This document shows positions 10,032 to 61,010 of a stretch of 64,000 bases of DNA, piece after piece. The stretch's first letter is position 1; each line of letters begins with the position of its first letter. The notes under the pieces were generated by a model. That model saw nothing but the letters and a program-made list of their open reading frames with translations, was not told where the DNA came from and made no database searches. This stretch comes from Eledone cirrhosa (lineage: Eukaryota): contig OZ024743.1 of assembly GCA_964016885.1 (NCBI GenBank), forward strand, positions 32,736,001 to 32,800,000, read 5' to 3'. The position numbers were made by a program, and so were the translations under genes.

Positions 10032-10181
10032 CATCTCATTTCTACAGCTGAGTAAACTGGAGCAATGTGAAATAAAGTACCTTGCTCAAGGAAACAACAC
10101 ATCACCCAGTCTGAGAATTGAACTCACAACCTTTCGATTGCAAGGCCAATGCTCTAACCACTAAGCCATGTGCCTCCACAT

Positions 10182-21549: not shown

Positions 21550-24500
21550 CTTCTTCACCTACAGGCTTATAAACAGAGAAGGCCCAATCACTCAGGCCAT
21601 TTTCGTTTCATTCACCCACCTTTCAGTAAATTTACTGGGGTGCAGTGTCTCTCTCTCCACCCTGATTCTCCTTCTAAAGTGATACTTAAAGAAGGGAATC
21701 AATTGTTGTCCGGAGAGAAAGGCATCTGTCCTCAGTCCTCTCAACCTCGTCCACCATATAACTTCTTTCACCATAGCCACCGTACAGAGGAAAACCGCCT
21801 CTCTTTCGTTTTTGAAAGAGGCTGGCGGTTTGATCCTTACTATGGACTCAGCAGTCAACTGGATTTGTCCCATACGCGACAGCAGTTGTTCTGCATAGTT
21901 CCACAGGTCGGTTACGCCCGGGCAGTGTACAATTGCGTGCAGGACTGTTTCAATGTCCTGCACGCATCTTAGACACGTCCTCTTGGAAGGATCCCTGCCG
22001 GGGCGTCCGTGCCTGTAGATCTTGTCGCGAACCAGTAGAGCTCCTCGGTAGCACTGCCAGGCCAGGGAGCTCTGGAGGTTGTCCATATGTCCCGAGCGGA
22101 AAGTCCAACCAAAGAGACTGGTGAGCTCATCGTCTTCGACGCCCAGAGTCTCTCCGAGCACATCGTTGCCCTTGTAACGTACAATCCCTCTATAGAATGT
22201 CGAAGTGGAGTCTCCACTGATTGCTGCGCCCGCTTGCCAGAGGACTGTGAGTGCCTGAGCACATTCAATGTGCCAGGCGCCCATCGTTTTCGGTCTTTTC
22301 TTGACCCAGGACTGCAGCTCCGTCAGCGAGACGAGCTGTGGGAAAGCCTGTCTCACAAACGGTGCCCGGTGAGGAATACCTGGAGATGCCGCAGCCTCAG
22401 CGCATGTTTCCGCATCATCAGCCACGGCATTCCCAGCCCTCCATTGGAAGGGTGCTGACAGCAGACGGATCTCCGCACCAGCGGAGCCTGCTTCTTCCAC
22501 AGAAACTGGAAGAGCATGCGTTCCATCTTGGCGAGGTGTTCACGGGGACAAGGCACGACAGTCAAGCAGTAGTAGATGACGGATGCTATGAAAGTGTTTG
22601 CCACCTCCGCTCGACCTTTCAAGGACAGTTTGCACTCTGCCCACTTCTGGGTGAGTGCAAACACCTTGGCCGTGACCTCGTTCCAATTTTTCTCCACCTG
22701 GAGGTCTGGACTGAACCAGACCCCGAGCAATTTCACCGGTCCGTCCGTCCAGCATCCAACGACGCTCTCGGACGTCATCGGTTTGCCTCTCCACGTACCG
22801 AGTTGCAAACCGACAGACTTGTGCAGGTTTAGTTTTGCTCCCGACAGCGTTTCGTATTCTTTCAGTAAGTTGCCGATCACCCTGATTTCCGAGGTGCTCG
22901 ACACCATTACCGTCACGTCGTCGGCATAAGCCGACGCCGCTTTGCGCAGTCCCGGTTCTAGAGGGATGCCCTGCAACAGCTCCAATTTCCACAGTAGTGG
23001 CTCTAGAGTCAATACATACAGAATGGAGGAGAGAGGGCACCCCTGTCGAATGGAACGCGTGATTGCGAACGGCTCCGACAGGTAGCCATTCACCTTGACC
23101 CTCGAGCAGATGCTGGTGTGCATCGCCTCGATCCATCTGAACACGGGACCGAAACCGCTTCCAAGTATCGATGGTCGACCCTATCGAATGCCTTATACTG
23201 ATCCAAGTTGATCAGAGCCCCACCGAAGCCGGGTTTACTACCCACCCTCTCTATGATGCATCGCAGGAGGTGGAGGTTGTCGTGTATGGACCTGGTCGGG
23301 ATTGCACACGTTTGCGCTTTCCCTACCAGGTTCTCGACGACAAGCGCCAACCTCGTCACTAGCACCTTGGCCAAAATCTTTAACTCTGTATTGAGCAGAG
23401 TTATGGGCCTGAAGTCGTTAATTTCGTCCCGCTTGTTCTCGTCTTTCCTGATCAGCGTTACTACGCCCTTTCCTGCAGAACTGGGAATTCTCCCGTTCTG
23501 CTGCCAATTGCAGTAGACGGCTTCGAGGACGCCAGAGAACAAGTCCGGCATGCCTATGTAAAACTCGTAGGGTAGACCATCTAGACCGGGTGACGTGCGT
23601 TTCCCGCAGCAGCCCAGAGCATCCCGTATCTCAGTGTCCATGATCGGTCTTTCGCAGAACTCGACGTCCGTGTTCGAGAGACACGGCAGGCCATGAACTA
23701 AAGTCCATTGCCCCGTTCGGCTCACCGTCGTTCTGCTCAAACAGTCGCGCAAAGTGCCGCTGAAAGGCCGCACACATTTGCTTGGGGTCAAGTAGCACGC
23801 GTCCGTTTTGGTCTTTCAAAGACCGAATCGTGGACTTGTTGCCACTTTTTGCCTCCGCCACTCGGGCCCAGCTGACAGCTTTTGCTCCTTCGTTTCCTAG
23901 AGCACGTGTTTTGCTTCTGACCAGGCAGCCTTCGTGTTTCGCATCGAAGAACTGGTCCAGTGCTGTTCTCGACGCTAACACTCTAGCCACGTTGCCACTT
24001 CTAGCTTGGCTACTAGTTCTCTTTCTATTCTGTTTTTCTCTAAGGCTAACTCTCTGCTATACCCTATCGATTCTATTCTAATTGCTTTCTTGAGAGAGTA
24101 CCACCATCTATTGTTGACGATGGCTCCCGTTAACTGTTGCTTGACTAGTCTACTTATCCGTTCACTGTAAGCTTTACGTGCCAGCAATGACACGTTCAGC
24201 TTCCAGTATCCGGGTCCCTGTCTATGTATTCTATCACGGTTGACTAAGCAGACGACTAACTTGTGATCTGAATAGGCAACCATGTGCATTCGTGGACAGC
24301 TTAACATCTTGTCCCTTTCTCTAATGAAGAACCTATCTAAATACGATCTAAATGTCCCACTGCGGTTTGCCCACGTCCACTGTGGTGCAGTCGGGAAATC
24401 CAGTCGACACCTATCGGCCACTTGGAATTGGCCGATTAAAGTTTTGAGCCTGTTGCACCCCGCTCTACTGGAACATGCTCCCACATAGTCCCATCGTGTA

Positions 24501-24871
24501 TCTAGGATACCATTCCAGTCCCCCACTAAAAGTAAGGAGCGAGACGTTCCCAGAAAAGACTCTAGACACTTAAAGAAGTCTGGCCATGATTGCGATTGCC
24601 CGGTCGGGTTCAAGTGTACTTGCTGTACTTCGACGTCCAGGTTCTTCCGAAACATGACAGCCACTCCACCTCCACCTCCTGGCTGACAGAGAGATGCGTA
24701 GATCTCAAAGTCGTCAAAGATGGGGGTTAATTCCTGCCTGTTGTGGATTCTGGACTCGGTGATGGCTATCACATCCATACTGTGTGACCTAAGGTCGTTT
24801 AAACGTTGGCCCTGTTTCCAGGGCATCCCTAGGCCACGCACATTCACGGTTCCAACTCGTAAACTAGCCAT
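21550..24871 (-). pseudogene. Tx1 ORF2 (APE endonuclease, reverse transcriptase, CCHC), broken into at least 5 frames
   Basis: ORF-track pieces 23975-24871, 23631-23990, 23090-23791, 22353-23144 and 21592-22500 are collinear parts of one L1/Tx1 ORF2. Confidence 0.92.
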
Positions 24872-24931
24872 GTTGGTGAAGAAAAGGACGAAAGGTGCAC
24901 TTACCTTTTCGTTTCCTGGAGATCGGGTTGT

Positions 24932-26728
24932 TCAATCTCCATTTTGGTGCTGGGTGGGGAAACATTTTAACAGGACGCGGTTGATGGGTTTGTGGCAGGG
25001 GTTGCCCACGTCCTGTGAAAATTTATTTTTTAGGTCATTATAGGTTTCCATAGAAACCCTTATAAGTTTAAGGTGTGGAGACGATTCTGCCTTGACGAAA
25101 GTTTTGCCCTCCGTCTCCACCTTGGGGTTTGGGGAGATGACCTCCATCAAACTATTGTTGTTTGTGTTGATGTATGCGTATTGTTGTTTGTGTATTTGTT
25201 GTGTTGTTTTAGTTTGTTGTTCGTCCGGGAGTTTTCTTTTTATGATGGGTGCTTTTGTTTGGGATGGTGTTGGTGCTGGTTTTGCTGATAGGGGGATGTT
25301 TGACTGTGGTGTTGTTTGTGTTGTTGTTGGTGATTGGAGTTTTGGAGGTTTTGTGGTGTCTCTTTTTTTTTTTTTTAGATTTCCGCGGCTCTCCCTCTTC
25401 TTCACTTAAAGAAGGTGAAGGAGCTTCATCCGTCGATGAATAATCATCGTCAGGTGTGTGGGGTAGGGGTATGTTGTGTGGTGGTGGTGTTTCGGTGTGT
25501 GTGTTTGTGGTAGTGTTTGATGGAGTGGGATGGAGTGGGGCTGTGTTCTTCAGGGGTGTTGTCTCTGTTTTTTCTGTTGTTGTTGTTGGTTGAGTATCTG
25601 TTTGTTTTTGTGTGGTTGCTCGTTTCCTCTGTCGTACTTGTGGTGGTGGTGGTTGTTTTGGTATTGGTGTTGGTAATAGTGTTTTTTTAATGATGTTGTT
25701 GTTGTGTGTTTGTGGACAAGAAGCTTTTAGGTGTACTGTCCTTCTACCGAAATGTTTATTTTGTTGTTATTATCGATGACGACTCTTTAGGGTATTTTGG
25801 AGATTCTCTCCGGTTTCATTTGCAACAGAATCTCCATATCAGTACCCGCCCACCTTTGTCGAATAGATTTTCGTATCGAAAGAATCATATCAGTTTCTGG
25901 CTCTACGAAGCCAGCCAAGATCCACCAGATGTTAATGTTTGGGGTATGTTTTTTATTTTTATTTTTTGTGCCCTTTTCCCCATGTATGTAGGGGGAAAGG
26001 TGTATGCTTTTGACACCATTGGTGTCAGAATGTTTTGAGGCGAGTGCCTCGCTTTTAAACAGTACGGAAGCACTTCCGTACTGTTTTCCTCGCTGGAGAA
26101 AATCGATATTTGCTAGAATTTCCTTGAAAGTAGCTTCTATATCTGCTTGGCTAACAAATGTCGGCTTTCTTGTGGAATTTGATACAGTCCTAAAGGTGAC
26201 TGATCTGCGAATTGTGTCTTCCTTTATTTCAAGGGGTGAGTTAATTCCAAACCCACCTTTTTCTTCGAAAGTTACAAATTTTCTCCCTTGCTGGAGCATA
26301 TCTCTTGCGTTGGAGATATCAAGATTTATAAAATCTTGTTTTTTGTTCAGTTTCATCGAAAGACATTTTCTTTTTTTGTGTGGTGTTGCTGTTGTTGTTG
26401 TTGTTATCGTTGTTAGCCTCGGTGTTGAAAATCTCAGTTCCTTGTCGAGGTGAAACATTATGTGTAGATGTATCTGTAGAGTTGTTGATGTCTTTTTCAT
26501 GTGTATGTTAATAGGTTTAATTTCTGTGTTTTCATGTGAGTTATTGTTACTTTTCTCCGCTTCGACGGTAGAAATTTTAAAATCTTCAAGTGGTAATATT
26601 TTTTCCTCTTTGTTGACAGTCGTATCTATGGCGACGTCCATAGTAGCAGAAGCAGATATAACGTTAATATCTGCCTCTTTCTCTCTCTTTTCTCTATTGA
26701 CGTTCTCCAGCGTTCTTGTGTTGCTCAA
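24932..26728 (-). pseudogene. Tx1 ORF1 (disrupted), with a T/Q/K-rich low-complexity segment
   Basis: Lies upstream of ORF2 on the same strand; pieces 25787-26728 and 24932-25405. No clear CCHC knuckle is visible. Confidence 0.7.
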
Positions 26729-26954
26729 GTTATTTAGTTTGTAAAATCTGATATTTTAAAACAATTTTTAAAATAAAATGTTCACCCCTATAGGGGCGAA
26801 AAGTGGGATTACCACCCAGCTGACAATTCAGCTTGGGGGTTAATCTACAAAATGTTATGTTTTTTCAAACAATTAGTTCGGTTTTTTGCATAGAAATTAA
26901 GAAAAAAGCTTACCAGCGTTGTTTCACGCGTTAGGCAGAAAGAGAGATAGATAT

Positions 26955-29077: not shown

Positions 29078-29271
29078 ATAGGAAAAAGTATGACCCCGAC
29101 GGCAGAGCTCAAGCCGTTTCGACGGCTATTTCTGAATCCAGAAATAGCCGTCGAAACGGCTTGAGCTCTGCCGTCGGGGTCATACTTTTTCCTATTACCC
29201 ACTCTACTACCCTAAGTATTGAGTACTCTGGTGCGTTATGGTCCATCTGGTTCCTTACCACAACTCCTTCG

Positions 29272-29273
<2 letters not shown>
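29078..29273 (+). mobile_element. Fold-back hairpin element (57-bp arms plus ~78-nt tail) containing the 3' half of a type I hammerhead ribozyme
   Basis: Inverted repeat 29078-29134 / 29139-29195. The right arm reads stem II agccgtc-GAA-acggc..gccgt-C-ggggtc. Flanked by (GATA)n and (TA)n; homologous to 59699-59892. Confidence 0.85.
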
Positions 29274-56870: not shown

Positions 56871-58202
56871 TAAAAATACATTACTTTCATAGCATAATCT
56901 GTTTTGAAGAAATTTGTATATATCACAAAAAATAAGTTTTTCACCATGCCACATGAAAAAGAGAATAGTATGGTATCAAAAAAGTTGCCTATATATTAAA
57001 ATTGATATTTATATTTTATAGGTTCCATATTTTTATGTATAAGGTAGAAAATATACACTTCAATGGTGATTTTATGTTAGTGTTTTTTCTTTTGATTGTT
57101 TTTCTATCTAGGCATTTTATATCCACTACTAGCTGAAGCCTCAACAAATATGTTTGTTCTAAACTTATCTTTCCATGCATTTGTTAATTCATAAATTCAG
57201 AATACAAATTTTCTGGTCAATAATTTCACTCATCTGTCTAATTTACTTTATAACAAACGTTCAACTACAATATCTGAATCAATCAATTTTTTTAGAATTT
57301 TAATTATCCTATGCTTAATTATTTATTTATTTATTTACTGTAATGTACAAAGTTGTTTCTGATTTATCTTATTTCCAGTTCATTTATTAGTTTTTAATCC
57401 AATTGCAATAACTTATTATCTGTAGTTTAGAAAATCCATCATAATGGAAAATTATTTTACCCTAAATCATTTATGCTTTCATTTTCATTGCAATATAAAC
57501 TAGGAAATTAATTGCCGGTGTCATGTTAATATGAAAGAAGAGACATATAAAAGATTACATCAATTAGTGCTACATCTCATTTTGCTACATGTTTCAATGC
57601 TTAAGTCTTAAGTAATGACCACTTCTTTCTCATTACCTGCATTATGTATATTTCAACAGGTCAACTGGCAGCCTCTTCATATTACCTGTTTATTGTCGTT
57701 TTTCCTGTTGTAAAATGCTATAAATAAATATATCAGTTAATATAAATTTATTGCATAATTGCTATCATCTTTACACCTACTTTCCCATGCTTGAACATAG
57801 CTTCTCCAGCACAGCTTCCTTTCACTTCTTGTGTTCATTTGTCATCTCTCTCCCCACTTCTCTCCAGGTTCCCCTTGCTCTTCTTATTTATTTATTTTCG
57901 ATACGTAAAAATATATTTGATTGAAATAATAATAAAATATTTGTTTTCTGGCAAAAGCAATCATAAAATATTACTGGTAATTTTCCTGCTTCTAGAAAAG
58001 TAAAACCAATCCTCTGGAATTTAAACTCAAAAATATAATTGTATATATCATAATGGATCTCATTTGGTCTCTACTTATTTTTGCAATAGCAATTCTTCAA
58101 TAGGAAAATTATATAACATAACCATGACCTTAGAAAAATTATTGTACATAAATATGTGGTAAATGTTCCCCCTCATCAAATAAGATTCCCATAATACATT
58201 AA

Positions 58203-58441
58203 CCCTTTCTTCACCATATTTCTAATGAGAGACACTCTCTATAATTTTCAAATAATTTAGGAAATATTAAAAAATCAGGGAAATTGTTTAACATAACTAA
58301 CTTTGTCATTATTAAGCTAATAACAAAGATTCTTACATGAATTGATGGTGGAAGGTTTTTTGATAATTATAAACAATTTAAAATAATTATATTTGTGTCA
58401 TGGAACCAGCAACAGCTTAGGTCAGTTCGGTATCAATAGGG
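58203..58441. mobile_element. piggyBac-type MITE (partial relatives at 1-208 and ~7420-7636)
   Basis: TTAA-ccct ... aggg-TTAA termini; interior similar to the other copies. Confidence 0.6.
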
Positions 58442-59475
58442 TTAAATGAACAGCTAATTTCTTATCTAATTAATATATTTTCATTAAAATAATTTTCTGA
58501 AATTTCCTTTTTTAATGACAATTATCTTCTGAGAAATTGATCTGTTTCTACATCTATTTACAAACCTCATTCTTATAAAATTTCCAGTGCAGTTTTTACT
58601 AAGTATATGTCATGTACAGAATTTATTGTTTTGTCAACATTCAAATTTATTTTTTAATAAGTACTGCTCATTTTTAAAGTATATGACTGTGTGCTGGTAA
58701 AAGCTTTCAGATAAAATTATATATCAATATATATTCTTCTATGGCTTTTGTTACCTCAACAACTGGCTAGTATTTTAGTTGTGACTATATTCATTTTTAG
58801 GCTTTTTAAATCTTTTAATTGCTTGAAACCACCTCTGAAACTATTTCTGTTAAAACCGTCCATCATCATTTTATCTAAGAATGTTTGCTATATTTTCTAA
58901 ACACCAACTTGATAATGAGAAAGTTAGTTATATTACTTCAAATCCCTTCAAATTCTGTAATTATTGTCAGAATTATTTTAAAATCATTGGAAATATAGTA
59001 TTGAAAGGGTTAATAAAAGAAAAGAATCCTTTTCCAACATTTTAGACATTTCTTGTAATCAGTTATTTAGTTGGAATAGAATGAAACGAAATTTCATTTC
59101 TCACTCTTAGTACGGCACTCACGGCATAAATCAGGCTGTCCGTTTGTTTACAAACGAACAAAGCGAATGTTATAATAAATATTCGCTAAACTGATACGTA
59201 CATATATATATATGTGTGCCTGTATGTATATATATATACATGCTACTGTACGTCTGTATACATATATGTATGTACGTATACATACATACTTACATTTAAG
59301 TAAGTGCCGTACTAAGAGTGAGAAATGAAATTTCGTTTCATTCTATTCAAACTTATCGTTTTCGGTGCGCCTGGCCGACTGAACTCACTCGATATGCAAA
59401 TTAGGCTGCTCAGCCGTTAATTTTCATAAGGAAAGTATATACTTTCGAACATTCAACCATCTGGCAGAAGGGTAT

Positions 59476-59518
59476 ACGGTGCTGACGATAGCTAACAAGC
59501 TTGAAACTAGTACATCGT
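59476..59518 (+). ncRNA. Minimal type I hammerhead ribozyme
   Basis: Stem I acggtg/catcgt; core CTGACGA; stem II agct-aaca-agct with a T-T mismatch at its base; GAAAC; palindromic stem III ACTAGT; GUA triplet, with predicted cleavage after 59512. Confidence 0.8.
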
Positions 59519-59667
59519 TCTTGTGTCAGTGTTGAACAAAAAGGTGACGTGGTTGCCTTAACACCGTACGGCATAAATCAGGCTGTCCGTTTGTTTACAA
59601 ACGAACAAAGCGAATGTTATAATAAATATTCGCTAAACTGATACGTACATATATATATGTGTGCCTG

Positions 59668-59698
<31 letters not shown>

Positions 59699-59699
<1 letters not shown>

Positions 59700-59892
59700 A
59701 CGAAGGAAATGTGGTAAGGAACCAGGTGGACCATAACGCACCAAAGTACTCAATACTTAGGGTAGTAGAGTGGGTAATAGGAACAAGTAAGACCCCGACG
59801 GCTGAGCTCAAGCCGTTTCGACGGCTAATTCAGTACAGAATTAGCCGCCGAAACGGCTTGAGCTCAGCCGTCGGGGTCTTACTTGTTCCTAT
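59699..59892 (-). mobile_element. Second copy of the fold-back hammerhead hairpin element, nested in a (TA)n tract
   Basis: Inverted repeat 59777-59892 (2 mismatches) plus tail; homologous to 29078-29273. Confidence 0.88.
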
Positions 59893-60149
59893 ATATATAT
59901 ATACATGCTACTGTACGTCTATATACATATATGTATGTACGTATACATACATACTTACAGTTATTTAGTTGATTCTGCAATATTAGATAGATTGTAAATG
60001 TACATATTTCCACGGGTATCCAGTTGTTTGGTATCTTTGTTGTTTGGTATCTTTGCCTGCTTTCAAGCTTTTCAGATATTCATCCACTCAATATAGTCCT
60101 TGTTATCTGTTGTCTTCTACTCCTATATGTTTTCACTATATGTTTATAC

Positions 60150-61010
60150 TATATGAGTGATATGCCCAAGACAACTTCGAGGAAAATTGGATATACAGAT
60201 GAACTTGCCTTGGCTACCCAATCTACTGACTTTGACAAACTCAACTTTATATTCACAGAAGACCTGAAGAAGATGAAGGACTACTACTCCTACTGATGCC
60301 TTCAGCTCAACCCAAACAAGACCACTGTGACAACTTTTCATCTGAGCACCAGACAAGCTAGGATGGAATTCAAGGTCCCCTAGACCTGTCAAGAATGAAC
60401 CACACTTCAAATATCTTGGTTTAACATTGTATCACAGCCTGACCTACCGAGAGCATAAAAAGAGGTTGCTGGAAAGCTCAAGACCAGGATTAATATAATC
60501 CACAAATTGGCAGGAAATGGCTGAGGGTCTGATGCACACACACTCCGATTTGTGGGCTTATCACTTGCATACTCAGTTGCAGAGTACTGTTCAGCAGTCT
60601 GGGAAGGGAACTGCCATGCCAAACAATTGACAAATATGCGTTTGAAATCATGCAAACCATTCTGGGAATCAATAAAGACCCTTCTGGACAATAAATTTGA
60701 TATGAAAGAAGAGTTGTTAATATCATGGAGTGAGTTAAAATTTGCCAACCAGGACGTCATCTAGGACCCTACATCTAAACCAGCTGGCTTTGCCCTTCCC
60801 AGAAAGCACTGGGTGTTCCTCAATCCGAGCCACACATCACATACCAGGATAGCCCATCATATCCATTGATGTGACTCTGGAGACTCTAGCCCAGTACTGC
60901 ATGTTGTTCGGGATTACCCCCTCAGACATTTTCCCGGGAGCCTGTAGGTTATCCATAATGCTGCAAATGATACTTTGGTCTAGCTTGCTGGTCTCAACCT
61001 GCCTCTCTAG
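60150..61010 (+). mobile_element. Degenerate I-group (Ingi/Vingi-like) LINE 3' portion
   Basis: YTDELALATQ, LQLNPNKT..FHL, KYLG, KLAG, LAYSVAEYCSAVW and GFALPRKHWVFLN motifs, with stops and frameshifts. Confidence 0.7.

Follow-up and report, generated by a model that had tools for sequence, protein, structure and literature searches.

Very probably, the insertion at 59060-59971 of the window (the whole 64-kb stretch of DNA analyzed here) is a recent copy of a hammerhead-bearing family that was integrated in trans by a Penelope-like protein, carrying reverse transcriptase (RT) and GIY-YIG domains, which primed on both nicked target strands, each nick giving rise to a cDNA with a fixed RNA start site of its own. 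The short inverted arm at its left end, A', probably stems from a second cDNA that the other target strand had primed, and not from a 5' template switch, because its outer end is a fixed start site and inverted copies of the family nearly always pair one such site with the other. At the sequence level, the family is a high-copy, non-coding retrozyme of the non-LTR type, or non-autonomous Penelope-like family, whose mechanistic footprints are unusually clear, and the initial annotation, which had proposed a non-coding, hammerhead-bearing, Penelope-type retroelement, was right in kind. The family bears on the way in which Penelope-like elements come to insert as tandems and inversions, and on the enzyme that mobilizes animal retrozymes: by estimate, this one genome offers ~14,000 natural products of integration, which follow an end rule common to its coding Penelope-like elements, and candidate partner ORFs lie in the same assembly. 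The one-end tail, the two start sites and the link between retrozymes and Penelope-like elements were already known separately; what is new is their joining and counting, which ties a retrozyme to the Penelope machinery by its footprint and not by co-occurrence. The proposed mechanism also makes a biochemical prediction, namely that synthesis on the two strands begins at different sites in any single event.

Anatomy of the insertion and of its hammerhead

The insertion is flanked by an exact 14-nt direct repeat (59060..59073 and 59958..59971, + strand) that occurs only at these two places in the 64-kb window and has a chance expectation of ~5e-6 over 400 offset pairs. The continuation of the element template matches the last 5 nt of the left copy and the first 2 nt of the right copy, so that, while the repeat itself stands as first annotated, up to 7 nt of it are common to the element and the true target-site duplication measures 7-14 nt. 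The duplication is visible because the target is complex rather than (TA)n, the window copy being one of few in such a target, and ATT follows it on both strands. Inside the duplication, A' (59074..59119, - strand) consists of tail sequence and is the exact reverse complement of 59303-59348, with an outer end that corresponds to 3' start site 2, displaced by 3 nt onto the 5-nt match. It is joined head to head, with a 2-nt overlap at 59120..59122, to a long + strand arm made of one complete 447-nt unit (59121..59567), comprising the B segment, the tail, a pre-ribozyme part and the ribozyme, followed by a second B (59568..59959) that stops at 3' start site 1 (59957-59959). In the complete unit, site 1 is an AC-rich stretch (59294..59298, +) in the loop of a predicted ACUUAC/GUAAGU hairpin, and is read through into the 58-nt tail (59299..59356, +) that ends with site 2 at 59356.

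The flanking repeat, the 46-nt inverted A', the 447-bp period (first positions of B, 59121 and 59568) and the absence of an ORF had all been read correctly in the initial annotation. The longest stop-free stretch spans 108 aa and runs into a microsatellite, and GC content over 58001-60000 is 0.31. Outside TA tracts, the two B copies are one substitution apart, and the insertion is hence young. An empty allele of 59060-59971 was not found; contigs from one sample, possibly the assembly's own, end as a filled allele would, in a 305-nt record equal in length to 59930-60234, and three RAD-seq runs and one small run give no coverage of the flanks.

The earlier description of the insertion as a ~1.4-mer holds once a nested element, missed at that time, is removed from the second B, which it interrupts at 59700..59889 (+). 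This unrelated, non-autonomous 190-bp element lies in a (TA)n tract and features a 58+58-nt palindrome at 59777-59892. At all 30 loci of its family that were examined, the element is bounded identically on both sides within (TA)n, 15 of the best 40 matches, window included, are identical over 136 nt, and a 33-nt motif of the family has 33,687 matches genome-wide. Both palindrome arms change together among subfamilies, and there are no clear terminal inverted repeats. A second copy, of the same fixed length type and with a long terminal-side palindrome, lies at 29079-29273 (-) of the window. The nested element was considered as a second retrozyme on account of its half-hammerhead look, and rejected because it has no CUGANGA core and has fixed ends. 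Elsewhere in the window, a broken LINE with endonuclease and RT frames (21592-26755, -), which we take to be L1/Tx1-like, accounts for a GC-rich stretch; a decayed LINE RT-like fragment, unrelated by eye, lies to the right of the insertion (60180-60600); and a weak tRNA match (10107-10170, -; 29.9 bits) is probably the head of a tRNA-derived SINE.

The hammerhead reported for the unit is present as a type I motif at 59476-59518 (+), with an extended stem I covering 59451..59537. Stem I pairs 59476-59481 with 59513-59518 and is followed by the core CUGACGA; stem II has 4 bp and is closed by U-U, GAAA comes next, and stem III has 2 bp, within the palindrome ACUAGU. Motif and fold place the predicted cut after GUA, between 59512 and 59513. 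In the Rfam search, the window has no hammerhead match, either at gathering or at E<=10, and the matches by E-value are microRNA-like, fall on TA-rich hairpins and all score under gathering. Across 38 aligned copies, 98.4% of cells are paired and 7 of 37 pairs show two-sided change, among them a stem I pair that switches from G-U to U-G, against a covariation shuffle control that ignores relatedness and with stem III fixed by the anchor motif. The retention of the ribozyme core and stem I, with two-sided change, in subfamilies ~15% apart suggests selection on the ribozyme. Folded as a circle, the 447-nt period reaches -136.6 kcal/mol, versus -95.7 +/- 4.7 for 60 shuffles (z -8.8).

A high-copy family with two fixed 3' ends

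Searched exactly, a 33-nt ribozyme pattern matches the 3.0-Gb genome 24,268 times, and its reversed control 0 times. The first 100 matches fall into 59 clusters, 38 with a single core and 21 with two or more, from which the locus number given above was extrapolated. The genome-wide search for multimeric insertions called for in the initial annotation thus turned up lone copies as well as inverted pairs and arrays that exceed 20 units; most of them lie in (TA)n, and loci diverge by 14.8% on average. Every tandem unit carries the type I hammerhead motif, and unit length is 422-500+ nt, at or slightly over the 150-450-bp range of retrozyme monomers. Despite hypervariable TA tracts, units can be uniform within a locus, as in the young arrays L078, where a length of 466 nt recurs on both arms (seven units, with one more of 468 and one of 619), and L155, with 422-426 nt on both arms. 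Long arrays are heterogeneous (L076, 3.8%; L077, 5.3%); in L077 (C28:19,366,000-19,375,999) and L076 (C14), satellite-like unit arrays occupy an entire 10-kb stretch. Repbase or published repeat libraries may already hold the family. Among the titles and abstract openings searched, a scope that leaves most subscription papers outside, neither a cephalopod retrozyme nor a counted pairing of start sites is described, and the word "ribozyme" is absent from the main text of an octopus repeat annotation (PMC13282606).

Copies of the unit end at two fixed positions. In a position-ordered sample consisting of the first 55 clusters on C1, site 1 is the end of 41 of 144 unit copies and site 2 that of 38, with 7 ending elsewhere and 58 reading through; on inspection by eye, a few of these calls are internal indels. 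Genome-wide, 1,867 tails run into (TA)n and 2,012 read through, in counts based on patterns that differ slightly at their 5' side. Two fixed 3' ends ~58 nt apart constitute the Penelope "tail" signature. Targets are predominantly AT-rich, with (TA)4 close to an end in 136/146 clusters, and insertion ends often match the template over 2-5 nt. Where flanks are complex, duplications measure 9-14 nt, exceeding 4 bp as in non-LTR retrozymes; a complex duplication of >=8 nt is found in 12 clusters, versus 0-5 in 20 shuffled pairings, and the 9-nt duplication of L177 is single in its empty paralog, L176. Among the six loci listed, ATT follows the duplication in one.

The 5' ends show a less defined distribution. 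A small sample had given the impression of a strong pile-up at the ribozyme cut, but genome-wide the excess is at most about twofold, with 30 ends at the cut and 38 at +2, versus 19 at -10 (p 0.15 for 30 vs 19; p 0.02 pooled, with duplicates retained), and a cleaved linear monomer is hence not the main template. In five loci (L164, L176, L180, L183 and L162), 5' ends lie 30-36 nt ahead of the cut, where the ribozyme core begins, which may reflect stalling of the RT on the fold or an edge of the pattern selection.

Paired start sites and the nature of the template

Because the inversions are head to head, both of their outer ends are RNA 3' ends. In 138 loci we counted 97 head-to-head clusters, 55 of which have both ends at defined sites, the remaining 42 staying uncounted because one or both ends fall elsewhere, in the internal TA tract or at the locus edge. 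Among the 55 defined inversions, 53 pair site 1 with site 2, one pairs site 1 with site 1 (L078, where the script fused two insertions) and the last, L069, is clearly site 2/site 2. The C1 sample alone yields site 1/site 2 in 22/22 cases, or 20 after removal of segmental copies (p 2e-6), and the window copy obeys the same pairing, with site 2 at the outer end of A' and site 1 at that of the long arm. Ends were classed by alignment; a motif-only classifier, which gave three site 1/site 1 pairs, one site 2/site 2 pair and several unclassed pairs, was noisy and was dropped, as it miscalled read-through units as ends. L125 has site 1/site 2 ends and was rejected as a single inverted event, since it shows no inverted repeat over 300 nt.

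In 51 inverted pairs, drawn from a sample partly selected for an intact ribozyme, the arms have medians of 386 and 421 nt, lengths that nested insertions inflate; both arms copy overlapping unit positions in 43 pairs, and an arm crosses the cut in 47. Joins outside TA tracts mostly overlap by 0-4 nt, with a few longer palindromic joins (L149, L155, L168). The window copy hinted at a site-2 cDNA blocked at site 1, an idea that does not generalize, with site-2 arms of <=75 nt in only 4/51 pairs. Divergence between the arms of one insertion averages 1.7% (n=14), versus the 14.8% seen between loci, and the two arms resemble one another more than the nearest other sampled locus in 8 of the 14 pairs, equally in 2 and less in 4; part of this similarity could be due to conversion or to a subfamily effect.

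These observations fit a mechanism in which a Penelope-like protein acting in trans would nick both strands of AT-rich DNA ~7-14 nt apart, probably as a dimer with one subunit per start site. Each nick would anneal to the RNA over 2-5 nt and prime one cDNA at a different fixed site, the two cDNAs would run for a few hundred bases, sometimes over several units, and they would be joined head to head through 0-4-nt microhomology. Insertions with a single arm would arise when one of the cDNAs extended as far as the opposite flank. For the window copy, the lengths would be 1.4 units for the site-1 cDNA and ~50 nt for the site-2 cDNA, with the 190-bp element jumping into the (TA)n tract afterwards. 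A Penelope-like protein has been reported to cut and extend both strands, with a preference for ATT (Frangieh 2024, PMC11167929), and the same source predicts a dimer.

Since arms usually cross the cut and overlap in unit position, the template must be multimeric, circular or consist of two sister RNAs, and would in any case offer more than one unit, as an uncut multimer or a re-ligated circle. We give about an even chance to an uncut, linear read-through multimer, or to two sister RNAs of one locus bound by the dimer, with long arrays growing later by unequal exchange and the ribozyme being accessory. The lack of a strong pile of 5' ends at the cut, the heterogeneity of the long arrays and the degenerate ribozyme core of a young coding family described below all argue for this template; the conservation of the ribozyme core and stem I, with two-sided change across subfamilies, speaks against it, as it suggests selection on the ribozyme. 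A ribozyme-released and re-ligated circle of ~420-500 nt, on which RT would roll from both start sites, is a credible candidate to which we assign somewhat less than even confidence. It accommodates two-strand priming, the shared unit positions and cut crossings of the inverted pairs, the constant unit lengths on both arms of L078 and L155 and the circular fold of the monomer, far better than that of shuffles, and retrozymes of mussel, coral and axolotl yield circles (Cervera and de la Pena 2020, PMC7229834). Uncut read-through of a homogeneous parent array would, however, give the same products, circle and multimer or sister RNAs being inseparable from DNA alone, and the sample that displays them is the one partly selected for intact ribozymes. 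Furthermore, hammerheads with a palindromic stem III are active as dimers and cleave poorly as monomers, which bears on a stem III of just 2 bp (PMC4209133), cleavage is dispensable in vitro (PMC11167929), and one of nine Xenopus dimers was cleaved, leaving eight without cleavage (bioRxiv 10.64898/2026.07.22.740005). The more specific combination of a ribozyme-made circle with an asymmetric Penelope RT-endonuclease dimer, its subunits fixed at the two start sites and rolling from both nicks, is put forward tentatively, with a chance of about one in three; if true, a single reaction would explain the one-end tail, the head-to-head inversions and the retrozyme arrays.

The alternatives to two-strand priming fare much worse. 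The initial annotation had envisaged that a single cDNA, after 1.4 rounds, changed template at gtacggca and so created the 5' inversion. This 8-nt similarity does exist near the join, in A' and ahead of the second B, and A' does stop beside site 1, as a blocked or switched product might. The 8-mer is not the join itself, however: both of its copies are retained (..gtacggca-ctc-acggca..) and the overlap is 2 nt. A switch also gives no reason for the outer end of the inverted arm to fall on a fixed start site in 53/55 inversions, nor is a stop at site 1 the rule among site-2 arms, and we regard it as improbable. Comparably doubtful is self-priming on an antisense template, which has been proposed for rotifer Penelope elements (PMC3846280) and would suit the few palindromic joins observed here, but does not predict outer ends that are two different sense 3' start sites abutting the target with short matches. 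Least probable is the reading of all copies as merely the 3' ends, or pseudo-LTRs, of a long coding Penelope-like element, which is already refuted as a general account: coding families do share the layout of ribozyme, two ends and (TA)n target, and a rare parent could escape detection, but the tail joins the pre-ribozyme part directly in arrays of >20 units, and this scenario, which the initial annotation had named as one that would overturn its reading, is not realized in any locus sampled.

Coding Penelope-like elements and known systems

The genome contains 10,596 GIY-YIG candidates, including several young RT+GIY-YIG families with open frames of up to 844-1,096 codons, whose Cys-rich linker suggests the Neptune clade (PMC8557442). 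These coding families likewise insert into (TA)n, end at two 3' positions and carry ribozyme-like motifs of their own, and in all four of their confirmed inverted insertions (L122, L128, L136, L130) the site pairing is the same as in the retrozyme family. None of 50 GIY-YIG loci examined out of the 10,596 is a coding element with a homologous end, and 11 regions downstream of coding elements, compared with shuffles, gave only short AT-rich matches to the unit, at shuffle level. Among 171 family loci, 41 have an ORF match, which in 9 lies in sense orientation within 2.5 kb upstream; in 0/9 is the ORF linked to the unit, each element stopping before it in its own 3' end or in unrelated DNA. Family and coding elements are co-located because both target (TA)n, and each has a ribozyme-like motif or 3' end that belongs to it alone. 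Searching proteins with one GIY-YIG fragment gave no match.

Several further Penelope-like and hammerhead-like families were observed along the way. Copies of a young coding family (L117, L118, L122, L125, L128, L136) share 97% protein identity, and the L117-type family has a hammerhead-shaped motif ~1.1 kb past the stop codon in which the CUGANGA core reads UUGAAAA; judging from this motif, the family may spread without a working ribozyme. At least five further families with hammerhead-like motifs (L120, L126, L127, L130, L133, L047, L064, L176, L224) were seen; stem III is palindromic in several of them, and some go with coding Penelope-like elements and others are unassigned. Another Penelope-like family, observed at L033:1574-2056 and at 13 further loci, is abundant, differs in its GIY-YIG type and has a 3' region of 1 kb that is rich in GT. 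It often adjoins the retrozyme in common (TA)n tracts; its GIY-YIG domain was missed by Pfam, and a protein search with it returned no relatives.

In L1 twin priming, both target strands prime and give a head-to-head inversion joined by short microhomology; the second primer lands variably, and the pieces copied lie next to each other on a single RNA. The family resembles this process in its probable two-strand priming, head-to-head inversion and short microhomology join, but differs in that both start points are fixed and the arms usually overlap in unit position (43/51 pairs).

The closest parallels are found among Penelope-like elements. As judged from its sequence, the family works like a Penelope-type insertion without being an autonomous Penelope-like element, since it has no RT/GIY-YIG ORF. 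It shares partial tandems, an inverted copy and a one-end tail with Poseidon of Anolis (PMC11167929) and with rotifer Penelope elements, in which the tail lies on one inverted repeat (PMC3846280), the tail of Penelope-like elements being often at one end only (PMC8557442). With endonuclease-bearing Penelope-like elements it has in common two internal start sites, which define the tail (PMC11167929), AT-rich targets, a hammerhead with palindromic stem III and 9-14-nt duplications. Unlike them, it has a tail of 58 nt, as opposed to 30-40, and it shows no homology to the ends of the coding families sampled here. The strand-paired use of the two sites is likewise a feature of the family: the in vitro study reports that start sites do not differ between strands and show no homology to the cut DNA (PMC11167929), whereas the natural ends analyzed here show matches of 2-5 nt.

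Like the metazoan non-LTR retrozymes described by Cervera and de la Pena (2020, PMC7229834), the family consists of non-coding tandem units of a few hundred bases with one type I hammerhead each, low GC content, duplications of >4 bp and a strongly self-paired monomer. Unlike mussel retrozymes, whose repeats span 350-390 bp, its units measure 420-500 nt, contain an internal (TA)n tract and mostly occur as 1-2 units, many of them inverted. Relative to the account of those retrozymes, the twin fixed 3' ends and the (TA)n targeting are features of the family studied here, for which RNA circles and self-cleavage are putative. Retrozymes have also been interpreted as non-autonomous derivatives of Penelope-like elements in a survey of 35 genomes, none of them from a mollusc (bioRxiv 10.64898/2026.07.22.740005). 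Our conclusion on retrozyme origin and mobilization is the same, but the basis in that work is co-occurrence and pseudo-LTR homology, whereas here it is the integration footprint.
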